From Alphaproteobacteria bacterium (GTDB taxonomy: Bacteria; Pseudomonadota; Alphaproteobacteria; Rs-D84): a stretch of DNA of 64,000 nucleotides. The position numbers were made by a program, and so were the translations under genes. The number at the start of each line of letters is the position of its first letter. Position 1 is the stretch's first letter. This document shows, one piece after another, positions 55,685 through 63,983 of the stretch. A model generated the notes under the pieces. That model saw only the letters and a program-made list of their open reading frames with translations, had not been told where the DNA came from and did no database searches. The DNA is taken from contig JAVBPX010000001.1 of assembly GCA_031549365.1 (NCBI GenBank), forward strand, positions 137,157 to 201,156, in the 5' to 3' direction.

Positions 55685-55760
55685 GGGTGATTAGCTCAGT
55701 TGGTAGAGCATCTCGTTTACACCGAGAGGGTCGGGAGTTCGAGTCTCTCATCACCCACCA
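55685..55760 (+). tRNA. tRNA-Val(TAC)
   Basis: GGGTGAT/ATCACCC acceptor, TCTCG-TTTACAC-CGAGA, GTTCGAGT, ACCA. Confidence 0.96.
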
Positions 55761-55770
55761 TGAAACACTG

Positions 55771-55793
55771 ACCGCCCGTTTTGGGCGGTTTTT
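55771..55793 (+). terminator. Terminator after tRNA-Val
   Basis: ACCGCCC-GTTTT-GGGCGGTTTTT. Confidence 0.8.
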
Positions 55794-55973
55794 GCTTGGA
55801 TTTGCATACTCTTGGGCTGGTTCGATAATGCGTTTTTTGAAAAGAGTTGTTTTTTACCCATTATCGAACTTTTTGGACGATAAACCTTGGTTTCTATGCT
55901 CTGCATTTATTTTGAAACTAGTTAAAGTGTGATTTGTTCTGTTGAACATCTATGCATAAAGGCATGCAAGTTT

Positions 55974-56837
55974 TTATTTAGTATTAGGTTTTATGGATTT
56001 TAATTTATTAAGCAAAATATATGAAAGAATTTTATTCTTTACATCATACCAAGGTTTGTCCGAATCTTTGATTGCAGATTCATCTTGCTGGCAATAATAA
56101 GCTTCTTTAAAAACTAATTCAAAGCCATCATTTTTCTTTATAAAAAATTCATTTTCTTCACGACCCCATTCTGAAACAGTTTTGAACTTGAAGACATTAT
56201 CGATAGCGTATGTTTCAATAATAGCATCGCCGAACCCCCGCTTATCCGAGACTACAGAGCTTTTATCATTTATTGCGTCAAACAGTTTTAAAATGGATTT
56301 TTCATCGTATCCAGTAGAACAGGTTATATGACTGCTGATTGGCTCTTTGTATCTATATGGGCAAGATTTGCAATATTTTTGATTTATGTGAAAATGAACC
56401 TTATCAAACAATTCATCAATGCGTTCATTGCGTTTTAAATCTTTCTGGGCTTTCTCTGTTATGCGTTCCGTTTCGCAACGTTTATTCATCTGTTTTTCGA
56501 TATTTGCATCCATTTCAGAAATAATGGTGTCAGATATATCTGGTTCCAATGCACGAAATATCTTTTCGATATTATCTGCACGGAATCGGAACATCGGAAA
56601 TTTTCTGTCCAATCTGACGTGTTCATATTCGCGTGGCGAACCATTAGAGGTATCGTTTTTAACAAGTAAATTGCTAATTATTTGGAAAGGCTTGCAATCT
56701 TTTTCGTAATTTATATTCTCGGAGCGAGAACACTTGCGGCCAGATGGCGAATTATATGTGCTTTCGCCATGATAACAATAAAAGTCGCACGGTACAATGT
56801 CCGGCGCAAAATCTAAAAATTCTTTTATGTAATACAT
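55974..56837 (-). CDS. Hypothetical protein (accessory cassette)
   Basis: Long AT-rich ORF, no recognisable family; ATG 56837 preferred as start. Confidence 0.7.
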   Translation of the reverse strand: MYYIKEFLDFAPDIVPCDFYCYHGESTYNSPSGRKCSRSENINYEKDCKPFQIISNLLVKNDTSNGSPREYEHVRLDRKFPMFRFRADNIEKIFRALEPDISDTIISEMDANIEKQMNKRCETERITEKAQKDLKRNERIDELFDKVHFHINQKYCKSCPYRYKEPISSHITCSTGYDEKSILKLFDAINDKSSVVSDKRGFGDAIIETYAIDNVFKFKTVSEWGREENEFFIKKNDGFELVFKEAYYCQQDESAIKDSDKPWYDVKNKILSYILLNKLKSIKPNTK

Positions 56838-56959
56838 GGTTAATATATAACACAAATATACAAAATGTCAACCTATTCTGTACTCTTTAAATTTTCTAAT
56901 TTGTCTCACCAAATTCAAAAAATCACCCGGGAAATTAGTTCGATAATTGTGTAATATCC

Positions 56960-62100: not shown

Positions 62101-63365
62101 TGAAACGCATTGACGAATTACCAGGCAATGGTGCCGCGCCACGCACACCGACCCCAACACCAACCCCAGAACCAGTGCGTCCCATTACACCAGATCCTAC
62201 ACCAGTCACGCCAGCTCCATCGCCTGTGACACCAACAGGCGCAGATATTGTGTCCCTGCGTAATCGTGCCAGTGCAAACTATCAAAAATATCTGGACGAC
62301 TTCAAAGCGACGGGACGTTCGGGTTACGGTTTTCCGAAATCACGTCTTTCTGATGCGGAATGGGCACGCCTAAGCGATGATTTATCAAAAGACGGATTGA
62401 AACTTATTGACGACGGAACTGGTAATATGCGATTTGCCAGCAATGCGTCATCTGCAACGCCGACACCGGCCGCGCCAGAACCAATTCGGCCAGTTGCACC
62501 AACGCCAAAACCAGTGGTGCCAGATATTAACGATATTCGTGCACGCGCCAGTGCAAACATTGATTCATATATAGAACGTGCCAAGGCAAGCCCTGCGTTA
62601 GGTAATGGGGCAGATGCTCCACGTCTTCCCAAAGAACGTTTAACGGATGTGGAATGGGTTATGCTTAATAAATCATTGGAAAGTTCGGGTGTACAGGCAT
62701 TTGAAACGGCAGATGGAGCAATGGTTTTACAGGCCATAGAAAATCCAAGCAATAATAAATTATTCGCAGATATATTTAAAAAAGTAGATTTTAAAGCCGG
62801 CAATGTTGACGAACAAGTGATGACGCAGTTGGTCAAACATAACGGTGAATTTTTTAATGGTCCACAGATAAGAGCTGTCAACGACAAAATATTAACAGGT
62901 TATCAAAATGCATTAAAATCAGATAAACAACTGAGTGAATTCGTTGATTTATGGAAACGCGGCAAATTAGATAAGGGGTACGAGCCATATGTAATGCAAA
63001 AAATTTCGGCATCAGTGCGAAAAGAATTCGGCATAACAAACGATTTTGATATATCTATGTTCAAGGGCGAATTTAATCAGGGCGGAAGCCATGCTATGCA
63101 TGGTTCACGTGGTGCTGGCCGTCAAACTGTTATTAATTTGAATGAGCAAGGATTTTCATCGGGAAGCTTTGGTGATTTTATGGAAACTTTAATTCATGAA
63201 AATGTTCATGGATTGCAAGGATATGGGAAAAGTGCACTTGACAAGGATATTGCAGACATGTCGCGCAGATTTTATGTGTCCGATAACGCAAAGGGATTAT
63301 ATGCAAATAATCCAATAGAAATAGAAGCGCGACAAATTGCCGAAATGGTCAGAAAAGGGTTATAG
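59109..63365 (+). CDS. 1418-aa secreted Cys-rich modular protein with a C-terminal HExxH zincin domain (polymorphic-toxin-like)
   Basis: TAATG coupling to the upstream gene; signal peptide; 3x DD-x3-C...D-x2-E repeats; AVFTGGASL hydrophobic segment; Pro/Thr linkers; 2x RASAN..P+.RL.D.EW repeats; LIHENVHGLQ...NPIEIEA. Confidence 0.85.
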   Translation: MKRLLIIFLMLFTVPAVAALPTEKNLAFSSEIVKGAIVELVLEKNQEKTANIYDELVSNDDGTVSIEDLFAVCRVAGWNTYRADGFAQCKTFINKLLTDSELESDNLPGGFCPGLDETGKNPNGLPTITDQTMVGNFCSSTNIAAGEVIFRKNYNCTCLATACYPGFAFNNGLKTRNGACLEVIANADRSCLRSEHAKTSQNDNMKKCKDFCTENAKKTGCNHVSTVMSHSTGKCICNANSGEIDAAKQSMKKAEEARLAKLPYYEVCGKDKGKGICIENDFNWIKTNRTRADIIIREYAKAKKITQLKCSETHRKSGNDDYIKCVTTDGKQFYEFKFDSVTETNDNAMNIGFETALCNLYGGSYMLSISAKSGKFIWNDTVLNGCKTTSSSCTSMSSAVGQVGRKGVYDNNICVFDTTSSAPKADGKKVCVDDSKSQYCVQQFEYLHTTAPMGIAIAYLYADKHNIRGMKCNNTPDTNRGWLGRVGGGDDFVQCQAGGHDYEFRFGDLSEGYDDTRFNSDVQAICSTMTGNKVSAWKNFYDNYYGDMVYCPGVSATECARMNTSLQSAATPYKSEFKDNVCTIASIISRDKSTAKKQMEAANKILTDAQRAELEKLASLQPNFNNVKDVIESNLKRMFPNAKKIQCASTTITAMNEFDAQNFRLAGDDFLMCWVDDDHIIIELDDSSEQGAYERARSESAMNCYAVGGQYQGKSCHGFTQSECMQLNTVLLSRGLKGANWNTLNRTCNMADAQDKATKDVLQNVGLIVGGTVLAVFTGGASLVVVIGAIADLTLEGAQYVNHELDESQVVRRMADFESSANRCKTADCAYNAVKDNFARMNAVLWKANSDDKKRYEARMSELAVLIGDEQRFIAATEESDLTFGDKFGQHAEAIITYSQIVIAAGTIGIEFAGRAGKLGTFGNTMNKTIIPSPLGRGAATAAQAGDSAEDISQAGRRLFTPDEAERVGIREVPDGRGGFNYQDVRNGNKFMSHDDVLKRIDELPGNGAAPRTPTPTPTPEPVRPITPDPTPVTPAPSPVTPTGADIVSLRNRASANYQKYLDDFKATGRSGYGFPKSRLSDAEWARLSDDLSKDGLKLIDDGTGNMRFASNASSATPTPAAPEPIRPVAPTPKPVVPDINDIRARASANIDSYIERAKASPALGNGADAPRLPKERLTDVEWVMLNKSLESSGVQAFETADGAMVLQAIENPSNNKLFADIFKKVDFKAGNVDEQVMTQLVKHNGEFFNGPQIRAVNDKILTGYQNALKSDKQLSEFVDLWKRGKLDKGYEPYVMQKISASVRKEFGITNDFDISMFKGEFNQGGSHAMHGSRGAGRQTVINLNEQGFSSGSFGDFMETLIHENVHGLQGYGKSALDKDIADMSRRFYVSDNAKGLYANNPIEIEARQIAEMVRKGL

Positions 63366-63625
63366 TACGTTTTTCGTGATGTTGCGATAAATTTCATTGT
63401 TATTTGGTGCGCTTTCCCTGATATGAAAAATAAATTCCCTGTTATTTGTAATAGGGAATTTTTCGTGGGTTCAGCTTTTATGTCCACAAAAATCGTAGGC
63501 CAGAATCAATCACTGGTTGCGTAATTTTGGTCATAATAGCCCGAAAACATCAAAATTCCCAAATACCCTGATAATGAGTTTTGCGGTCCGTATTCAGGTA
63601 TGGCGAATCTTGCAATCAAATCCCG

Positions 63626-63857
63626 ACCCACCAGTAGTATTCTGACACATCAGATACATATACTATAAAGCCCGCTACCTGCGGGCTTTTTTGATGCTGT
63701 GACTCTGGTATGGCTGGATTTGCCGCCATTTACCCCCAATCTATATCCATTTCTATACAATGCCCATTTTCGCATAGTCAATGGTCGTAAAAAAAAGTAC
63801 AAATATTATAAATTTATGGTATAATGTCGGCATGGACAAGAGGATAAAAGCTGTGAA
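63626..63857 (+). repeat. Structured intergenic repeat, copy C
   Basis: ACCCACCAGT...AAAGCCCGC..GCGGGCTTTT core plus the same promoter/ATG block as copy B. Confidence 0.9.
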
Positions 63858-63859
63858 AG

Positions 63860-63983
63860 CACACACACACACACACACACACACACACACACACACACAC
63901 ACACACACACACACACACACACACACACACACACACACACACACACACACACACACACACACACACACACACACACACACACA
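63860..63983 (+). repeat. (CA)62 tract following ATG 63832 (MDKRIKAVKA-HTHT...)
   Basis: 124-nt perfect tract at the same position relative to the start codon as in copy B; length may be unreliable. Confidence 0.85.

Follow-up and report, generated by a model that had tools for sequence, protein, structure and literature searches.

A tandem stack of putative integrative elements at the 3' end of a tRNA-Val gene in an alphaproteobacterial genome

This analysis concerns a 64,000-nt stretch of an alphaproteobacterial genome (GTDB lineage Rs-D84; GenBank assembly GCA_031549365.1, contig JAVBPX010000001.1, here C14, positions 137157-201156), which we refer to as the window. Behind the tRNA-Val(tac) gene near its right-hand end, three copies of a structured repeat module lie between the genes, and each copy starts with the last bases of the tRNA, called the tip below. 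The region is probably (about 0.72 in our estimate) a tandem stack of integrative elements, at least four in number, serially inserted in the last bases of tRNA-Val(tac) and all without a recombinase. With the genes between the modules called cargo and the folded part of each module called the core, the open reading frames (ORFs) and other features of the locus are the following.

55685-55760, plus strand: tRNA-Val(tac), the putative integration target (ARAGORN; Rfam tRNA, 70.3 bits).
55770-55790, plus strand: plain terminator-like hairpin immediately 3' of tRNA-Val, with no repeat module (terminator scan, sequence).
55974-56855, minus strand: cargo of unit 1, an ORF of 293 amino acids (aa) convergent with tRNA-Val (ORF list).
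56960-57127, plus strand: repeat copy A, with tip 56960-56966, hairpin 56967-56990, GC hairpin 57000-57016 and core 57027-57114.
57125-57152, plus strand: promoter-like site right behind core A, towards cargo 2 (TAGACT-16-TATTAT, with TG; promoter scan, a consensus match only).
57179-57853, plus strand: cargo of unit 2, a 224-aa ORF (ORF list) with no family match in Pfam, NCBIfam, PADLOC or PHROGs.
57884-57911, plus strand: attP-like junction at B (sequence).
57895-58073, plus strand: repeat copy B, with tip, hairpin, GC hairpin 57946-57962 (one mismatch) and core 57973-58060.
58074-58168, plus strand: leader B, with TACAAA 58074-58079, TGgTATAAT 58093-58101, ATG 58108, AGAGGA and GTG 58129, and (AC)18 58133-58168.
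58108-59109, plus strand: cargo a of unit 3, a 333-aa protein with (AC)n before a signal-peptide-like stretch, in frame in the assembly (ORF list).
59109-63365, plus strand: cargo b of unit 3, a cysteine-rich 1418-aa protein with an N-terminal signal-like stretch (ORF list).
63414-63562, plus strand: right-end repeats of unit 3, TTCCCTG at 63414 and 63435 and the variant TTCCCAA at 63556, then GGTATGG before the tip (sequence).
63626-63797, plus strand: repeat copy C, with tip ACCCACCA 63626-63633, hairpin, GC hairpin 63670-63686 and core 63697-63784.
63798-63982, plus strand: leader C, with TACAAA 63798, TGgTATAAT 63817-63825, ATG 63832, GTG 63853 and (AC)61 63861-63982.

The 3' end of tRNA-Val reads ACCCACCA, and these bases recur at every unit boundary. 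The heptamer CCCACCA stands at 56960-56966 (copy A), 57896-57902 (copy B) and 63627-63633 (copy C); B and C carry the full octamer ACCCACCA, and A has a C at the position of the tRNA's A. By itself the heptamer is not rare (12 matches in the window, 7.2 expected), and it carries weight because it lies at the left edge of each unit and because tRNA-Ser and tRNA-Pro loci show a like arrangement. Unit 1 consists of cargo 1, between tRNA-Val and tip A, and unit 2 of tip A, module A and cargo 2. Unit 3 comprises tip B, module B, a promoter and (AC)18 leader, the 333-aa and 1418-aa proteins and a right end of TTCCCTG type; unit 4 begins with tip C, module C and a leader with (AC)61 or more, and would have its cargo on contig C15, where a last tip with a truncated module would end the array.

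The repeat search returned one three-copy family of 170 nt (56958-57127, 57904-58073 and 63628-63797, the second and third 69% and 79% identical to the first) and a second family of two 227-nt copies that are 90% identical (57942-58168 and 63666-63892). Together with the sequence itself, it recovered what an earlier note on this DNA had described: three repeats at 56960, 57895 and 63626 that start with the tRNA-Val tip and continue into a GC hairpin and a core, with a promoter, ATG and (AC)n tract common to B and C. In all three copies the GC hairpin reads GCCCGC-N5-GC(G/T)GGC followed by Ts; with an A-run in front of it as well, it is predicted to stop transcription from both sides. The core measures 80-88 nt as a whole; counted from GACT through AGTCA it is 80 nt long in each of the copies A, B and C. 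The shared continuation of B and C consists of TACAAA-N16-TGgTATAAT, ATG, AGAGGA-GTG and the (AC)n tract; the promoter of leader B was read from the sequence, as its weak first hexamer kept it out of the promoter scan. For the suggestion that each repeat is an insulator and expression platform, there is a terminator-like hairpin in each copy and, in B and C, a predicted promoter with a putatively phase-variable leader.

In simple-sequence contingency loci, a dinucleotide tract behind the start codon of secreted-protein genes would toggle the reading frame on and off. The (AC)n tracts of leaders B and C have this form, with a unit length that is not a multiple of three and a position inside the reading frame close to the start, and at 61 units or more the tract of leader C is unusually long. 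Read alignments are cut at 58125-58178, around (AC)18. The window ends together with contig C14 inside the (AC)61 tract, where the assembly breaks. C15 opens with (AC)55 (C15:4-113), a signal-peptide-like ORF and two further small ORFs, and at C15:1685-1752 has a fifth tip, followed by a truncated module that retains the first hairpin and only the beginning of the GC hairpin. As (AC)18, (AC)61 and (AC)55 are the only (AC)n tracts of at least seven units in the genome, we regard it as very probable that the array continues from C14 onto C15. At junction B, the tip ACCCACCA (57895-57902) lies between the inverted arms TCAGAATAC (57884-57892) and GTATTCT (57903-57909), and inverted arms TCAGAATAC and GTATTCTGA flank the tip both here and on C15 (~1690-1720). 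The two junctions look like a P arm, tip and P' arm, the form that a boundary between two elements should take.

Pfam, NCBIfam, PADLOC and PHROGs yielded no usable annotation for the four cargo ORFs (the 293-aa ORF had no match in the first three, and weak PHROG matches with E 0.03-0.05), and tblastn against the fetched loci of relatives and against the genome itself found no relatives of them. RNA-library contigs cover 56274-56606 within cargo 1, 58280-58860 in the 333-aa gene and four stretches of the 1418-aa gene. The 1418-aa protein has an HExxH motif close to its C-terminus (63195-63209). Giant proteins of the corresponding islands in relatives G045 and G051 have an N-terminal Peptidase_M48 match, and tblastn detected no similarity between them and the 1418-aa protein. 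All Phage_integrase and Resolvase matches of the genome fall outside C14:137157-201156, so that the 64-kb window holds no recombinase gene; the absence of an integrase had been noticed before.

Clean single islands in relatives bear directly on how such an array could arise. In G013 the order is tRNA-Pro(tgg); a trailer hairpin, the GC hairpin and the core; a 256-aa ORF; a convergent gene for a large serine recombinase (LSR); a DUF2924 gene; a restriction-modification system (AlwI-type endonuclease and two D12 methyltransferases) along with a KAP NTPase; TTCCCTG repeats, four or five in number; ..AATACCGACCGACCA; a plain terminator; and host genes. The tip at the far end is CCGACCA, followed by the plain terminator without a core, and a covariance model of the core, built from 11 copies, found no second core in this genome. 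The island at tRNA-Val of G005 spans 9.6 kb and has the same anatomy, with four TTCCCTG repeats, GCAACAGAATGCCGACCCACCA and a plain terminator at its far end, where there is no hairpin module or core. Its tRNA-Val ends in ..ATCCACCA and the far-end copy in ..ACCCACCA, as in the window; because the two differ, the crossover would lie within the last ~5 nt of the tRNA. Far ends that have the tip and lack hairpins and core argue that the hairpins and core belong to the LSR-side end of the element and not to the repeat made by recombination. The architecture ahead of the tip at the right end of unit 3 is also found in G013, G005, G045 and G016, and elements that target Val and Pro have GCAACAGAATRCCGACC in common in their P arms, with GGTATGG upstream. 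Serial site-specific insertion at the tRNA-Val tip, as the earlier note had proposed, is supported by this comparison; its proposal of the repeat as att site applies to the first 5-8 nt, the tip, and not to the hairpin and core, which the far ends of G013 and G005 do not have.

A search for the repeat across the genome and its relatives had also been called for. Both large searches with the core model, of the family and of the order, were run with strict filters, and gave matches in 50 of 121 genomes of the family (12 of 18 genera). Of the 151 order genomes 48 had a match, and these extend to four other families. For the best matches 29 loci were fetched; in 21 of these the core follows a same-strand tRNA gene at a distance of 60-165 nt, and in the remaining eight there is no tRNA within 1.5 kb. 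The tRNAs upstream of cores are Val-tac, Pro-cgg, Pro-tgg, Ser-gga/tga/cga, Ala-ggc and Leu-gag, and pairs of cores spaced 0.6-8 kb apart are common in relatives. Within the genome studied here, a core lies 70 nt behind tRNA-Pro(cgg) on C7 and another behind tRNA-Pro(tgg) (C14:11.8 kb), and a Ser-type subtype occupies four sites, at tRNA-Ser(gga), at tRNA-Ser(cga) (window 10817-10892), at C8:28.8 kb and at C8:50.9 kb. The core is therefore widespread and found mostly behind tRNA genes, of several kinds beyond tRNA-Val. In genus g10, tRNA-Pro(tgg) bears different core subtypes in different species, which suggests that the module is element-borne, and one subtype is near-identical across two genera, which fits a mobile element. 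A minimal unit is seen in G056 (L054:3023-4160), with tRNA-Pro(tgg), a core, a 175-aa gene and then a tip and core; the gene has a weak match to Arr-ms (rifampin ADP-ribosyltransferase; E 2e-4), below the curated cut-off.

The core is linked not only to tRNA genes, but also to the LSR gene. Pfam was run on 68 of the 131 ORFs from 14 array loci of relatives, and four ORFs of 544-550 aa, each beside a core, have Resolvase and Recombinase domains, with a DUF2924 gene adjoining three of them; no recombinase other than these four LSRs was found among the 68 ORFs. A protein search with the LSR gave matches in 66 of the 121 family genomes. An LSR lies within 5 kb downstream of 36 of 98 core matches, on the opposite strand (convergent) in 36 of 36, at a median distance of ~700 nt (within 15 nt in five), and upstream of only 3 of 98. 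Seen from the recombinase side, a convergent core lies within 5 kb of the 3' end in 20 of the 59 full-length LSR matches. In ten independent LSR loci from a public genome collection a core is located downstream on the opposite strand in six, with a tRNA behind the core (Val, Pro or Lys) in three of the six. A protein-atlas search with the LSR confirmed the family and yielded nothing further. On the basis of this linkage, the LSR (~545 aa, with the module at its 3' end) is likely to be the integrase of the elements. The records of the LSR loci are titled uncultured Alphaproteobacteria and Candidatus Enterousia; among loci with close LSR homologs and cores (L072, L075, L077-L079 and L081) some are titled Muribaculaceae or Bacteroides fragilis, possibly by mis-binning or mislabelling. 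In the literature excerpts that mention DUF2924, it is mentioned for Wolbachia.

The genome itself encodes one LSR (C8:49288-50850), 46% identical to that of G005, and its 3' end lies 11 nt from a core. In front of this LSR-side core stands a displaced 3' half of tRNA-Ser, 1.7 kb downstream of tRNA-Ser(gga) and its own core. A candidate for an integrase beyond the 64 kb, which the earlier note had advised looking for, is thus present in the tRNA-Ser(gga) stack on C8, and none is found beside the tRNA-Val array. The sole Resolvase match of the genome is on C8, and the Phage_integrase matches are two on C15 and one at C14:28484-28990. A tyrosine-recombinase-like ORF by tRNA-Met (C15:48862-49188) was rejected, there being no module at that site.

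These observations can be combined in the following scheme. The left end of an element would be its module, consisting of the tip that completes the tRNA, one or two hairpins, the folded core and often an outward promoter. With a crossover within approximately the last 5 nt of the tRNA, an incoming element would set its own module beside the tRNA and displace the older trailer to its far end, together with a copy of the tip in front of that trailer. Repeated insertion would then give tRNA, [module-cargo-tip], [module-cargo-tip] and so on. The cargo in the window consists of orphan genes, including two predicted secreted-protein genes behind a shared putative promoter with a candidate (AC)n phase-variation leader.

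Several observations weigh against this reading. Unit 1, by the scheme the newest, has a plain terminator instead of a module next to the tRNA, and neither in nor beside the tRNA-Val array is there a recombinase. What ties integration to the LSR is solely linkage; for 62 of the 98 core matches an LSR match is lacking within 5 kb, the model detects no core at 39 of 59 full-length LSR matches, and the LSR of this genome has its stop ~24 codons before the end of its homologs. The GC hairpin of copy C is missing from the terminator-scan list, though copy A has the same stem and T-run. No excision product, circle or alternative cassette order was seen, this genome being the only one of its genus in the comparison. 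A DNA contig of the probable source run X1 (depth 13.9, compared with about 32) joins 55778 to 56919 and skips cargo 1, with breakpoints that are not at the tips; it could represent a strain variant or a related organism. Three further read joints (57112/57876, 57902/57943 and 58025/57082) contain letters of the Pro-type core and are most likely due to cross-mapping from other organisms.

The covariation analysis that had been recommended supports pairing in the core. Its consensus has an outer stem TGACTnTG/CAnAGTCA and an inner stem GTATRG/CTATAC, and between the stems a variable stretch of ~40 nt and a near-invariant unpaired run AATGCCCATTTTCG (also given as CTATACAATGCCCATTTTCG). In the 11 seed copies 90% of cells are paired, a modest support as 3 to 8 of 500 shuffles reach most measures. 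The model-based alignment of 56 distinct copies has 86% of its cells paired, with both-side changes in 10 of 15 pairs and none of 500 shuffles reaching any measure (25-47% paired in slid-partner controls). These figures lean towards structure, as the alignment was fitted to the model and the sequences are related. More telling than these counts are outer stems that are wholly replaced yet complementary, such as TACCAC/GTGGTA (L061), TCACAGT/ACTGTGA (window 20462-20547) and TGCAaTG/CAgTGCA (Ser type), the Ser-type core having its inner stem changed on both sides as well; with these we take the pairing to be real. Read in the tRNA sense, G-T pairs exceed A-C pairs (49 versus 14), which points to the tRNA-sense strand as the folding strand, an argument that leans heavily on one column with 19 of the 49 G-T pairs. 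Single-sequence folds of the core are mildly better than shuffles (z +0.1 to -5.1), and a scan of all column pairs gave no convincing further pseudoknot pairs. Rfam cmscan of 55000-64000 with E up to 1 returned the tRNA alone, and no family for the core.

For the role of the core our best guess, held with low confidence, is a structured insulator or regulatory element that acts in cis at the end next to the recombinase gene and takes its fold as the tRNA-sense strand. A difficulty is that in the tRNA sense the core lies behind the terminator, so that production of this strand as RNA is hard to explain; in the LSR sense, it would be a 3' untranslated region ahead of the GC-hairpin terminator. 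The main alternative role is an accessory DNA site, which is suggested because the GGTATGG motif occurs in the P arm too. No RNA-library contigs lie over the repeat copies, at a gene depth of only 3-7 that is too low to judge the repeats, and DNA carry-over is possible. Fourteen of the 56 copies have a pattern TTGnnn-N15-19-TAnnnT that starts no more than 60 nt behind the core, its first hexamer often within a conserved GGTTGA directly 3' of the core. Behind Ser-type cores (window ~10930-11010; C8:52.3 kb and 28.7 kb) there is a strong promoter-like site of the type TTGACT/TTGATT-N17-TGgTATAAT and, ~15 nt on, one or two short T-run hairpins ahead of the first ORF, which could be a small RNA or an attenuator. 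Other candidate roles were rejected: a minus-strand promoter (TTGACT-N18-TATAGA), the hexamers of which are lost in Ser-type and ACATCC-type cores with complementarity kept; a coding sequence or the LSR C-terminus, given lengths of 79-81 nt, the variable middle and intervening ORFs before the LSR in many loci; an LSR att site, as the far ends of clean islands have the tip only; and a sigma-54-like site or mini-ORF, both dropped on inspection.

Explanations other than a stack of integrated elements have to be considered. The core could be a host non-coding RNA (ncRNA) family of tRNA loci, for example a trailer-derived regulatory RNA, with the array built by local trailer duplication and gene gain. 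The nearly constant same-strand position behind tRNA genes, the compensatory changes, the 49 to 14 ratio of G-T to A-C pairs in the tRNA sense and the lack of an Rfam family match all agree with this possibility. It does not explain why the displaced far-end trailers of G013 and G005 are without a core, why species of one genus have differing subtypes at the same tRNA, or why an LSR, always convergent, follows 36 of 98 core matches; moreover, the core stands behind the terminator in the tRNA sense, and no RNA contig lies on it, at a depth too low to count. We consider such a host RNA unlikely as the source of the array. The core itself may be a repeated ncRNA, an alternative already raised in the earlier note, and its pairing is supported.

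A similarly small chance is given to homologous recombination or gene conversion among phase-variable surface-protein promoters, which would keep the repeats alike and swap cargo, with no site-specific recombination at this locus. Copies B and C are 90% identical over 227 nt, a stretch that takes in the promoter, the start codon and (AC)n, while no similarity could be detected between the proteins encoded behind them; (AC)n tracts are absent elsewhere in the genome. A role as gene-conversion anchor, also suggested before, is possible for these two copies. On the other side, copy A and the C15 copy have no such leader, each unit begins exactly at the tRNA tip, the same tip-module units border LSR islands in other genera, and the right end of unit 3 has the TTCCCTG architecture of those islands. 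Finally, the units might be integrated at the tip by a tyrosine recombinase, either one of the three in the genome or one since lost, with the LSR as frequent cargo. tRNA 3' ends are classical targets of tyrosine integrases, serine integrases are described as not known there (in the sections of PMC4383910 consulted), and the genome does have three Phage_integrase matches; yet none of the three is near an array, the four LSRs are the sole recombinases among the 68 of 131 array-locus ORFs scanned with Pfam, their place and direction beside the module are fixed as for an integrase, and serine-recombinase islands at the tmRNA gene are on record (PMC3146451, in part). We regard this option as very improbable.

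The window contains a second array, behind tRNA-Ser(cga), with the following ends.

10626-10892, plus strand: left end, with tRNA-Ser(cga) 10626-10717 and a Ser-type core 10817-10892 (ARAGORN, core model).
20031-20547, plus strand: far end, with four TTCCCTG (20031-20281), the tRNA-Ser tip CTCCGCCA 20394-20401, a hairpin and a core 20462-20547.

The displaced tip CTCCGCCA at 20394 forms a direct repeat with the tRNA gene as in tRNA islands, and 6 of the 10 TTCCCTG matches in the window fall within the two right ends (unit 3 and the tRNA-Ser(cga) array), all on the plus strand. The stack of ~9.7 kb contains a DUF5131 gene, a class I lysyl-tRNA synthetase (13232-14824), a nucleotidyltransferase, an aldehyde-dehydrogenase-like gene, a class II (D/K/N type) aminoacyl-tRNA synthetase (17105-18604) and a phosphodiesterase; two synthetase genes in an apparently inserted block are odd. 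Next to the class II synthetase gene, on its upstream side, ARAGORN predicts a tRNA (18628-18700, minus strand) to which it assigns no identity and whose 'anticodon' has two bases; it may be an odd tRNA or a tRNA-like leader. On C8, a stretch on one strand (C8:28758-52697) holds tRNA-Ser(gga), a core, two ORFs (one with an in-frame stop), the displaced tRNA-Ser 3' half, a core and the LSR, and ~22 kb further, at C8:28.8 kb, a tip and module near-identical to the tRNA-Ser(cga) module of the window. This stretch may be a 22-kb LSR island.

Beyond the stack itself, we put forward tentatively, as an idea that is more doubtful than not, that these reduced-genome gut Alphaproteobacteria host an LSR clade specialised on tRNA tips, with an obligate folded cis-element of ~80 nt, which runs an integron-like capture of short recombinase-less units, each made of a tip, module, promoter, one or two genes and right-end repeats, which one LSR would insert and stack and might also move in trans. 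In that case the folded core would represent a new class of signal, in structured RNA or single-stranded DNA, on which this recombination or its control depends. If true, sub-megabase genomes could shuffle surface proteins and defence genes. Genomes of ~0.9 Mb that are thought to be streamlined appear to keep a working exchange site for surface proteins and defence systems, and the words recombinase, mobile and island do not occur in the available portion of the reduced-genome paper on this order (PMC12306168). Serine integrases are prized for genome engineering, and tRNA targeting is rare for the class, the tmRNA gene in Dehalococcoides being the close precedent (PMC4383910 and PMC3146451, both in part). 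An LSR clade inserting harmlessly in the last bases of several tRNA species would widen this target range and offer natural conserved landing sites. The ~80-nt core, found order-wide, without an Rfam match and linked to a single class of gene, offers structural work on RNA or DNA a concrete new subject.

When the array is compared with known systems, the closest precedent appears to be the ssrA genomic islands of Dehalococcoides with their serine recombinase DsiB. As far as the excerpts of PMC3146451 describe them, these islands are arranged in tandem, with a 20-bp repeat of the tmRNA gene 3' end, and have a 540-aa serine recombinase on the reverse strand beside attL; many array members lack an integrase and are discussed as cis-mobilizable elements. 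The likeness is in the tandem islands downstream of a tRNA-like gene with a short direct repeat of the gene 3' end at their borders, in the ~540-aa serine recombinase on the reverse strand at the tDNA side (present here in the element family and absent from the tRNA-Val array), in the many members without an integration module, and in the extra conservation around the repeats. The differences are that the targets here are ordinary tRNA genes (Val, Pro, Ser, Ala, Leu, Lys) and not tmRNA, that the identity is 5-8 nt at the very tip compared with 20 bp into the T-loop, that the partner gene is DUF2924 in contrast to DsiA, RecF or ParB, and that the host is a reduced-genome gut alphaproteobacterial lineage. 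The ~190-nt left-end module with its folded core and the right-end TTCCCTG repeats are both absent from that account, in the parts of it consulted.

The accretion of integrative conjugative and mobilizable elements in streptococci, with its cis-mobilizable elements (CIMEs), is similar in that integrase-less, att-flanked elements are stacked with integrase-bearing ones at one site (PMC3146451, in excerpt), and the units of the window are flanked by tips as putative att sites and have no recombinase. Streptococcal CIMEs belong to tyrosine integrases and conjugation, whereas no conjugation genes were seen here, and in the portions seen of a survey of streptococcal integrative mobilizable elements serine integrases insert within protein genes (PMC5357655). 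The tRNA islands of Islander have an intact tRNA, a displaced copy of its 3' end at the far side, an integrase gene at the tRNA side and tandem arrays (PMC4383910, in part). The same direct repeat is present in the window, where tRNA-Val ends at 55760 and CCCACCA recurs at 56960, 57896 and 63627; an integrase gene inside the island is absent from the units of the window and present, in the form of the LSR, in relatives and in the tRNA-Ser(gga) array of this genome. The integrase class differs, serine integrases being stated in that source, within the text consulted, not to be known to target tRNA genes, and the displaced fragment is very short here, 5-15 nt in most units.

As in integrons, short and mostly single-gene units are parted by a structured repeat with nested inverted repeats, and newcomers would join at the end nearest to the fixed site. 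The array, likened to an integron in the earlier note, is nevertheless not one, since no IntI-type tyrosine recombinase lies near any array, the units bring their own promoters and the enzyme linked in relatives is an LSR. In contrast to integrons, the repeat here stands upstream of the cargo, often with a promoter, the crossover would take place outside the folded element, and some units carry their own recombinase; attC-type cassettes do not fit with promoter-like sites in A, B and C and with clean-island far ends that lack the folded element. Relative to all these systems, the novelty here lies in the tRNA targets, in a left-end module whose folded core is unclassified and occurs across an order, and in the TTCCCTG repeats of the right end.

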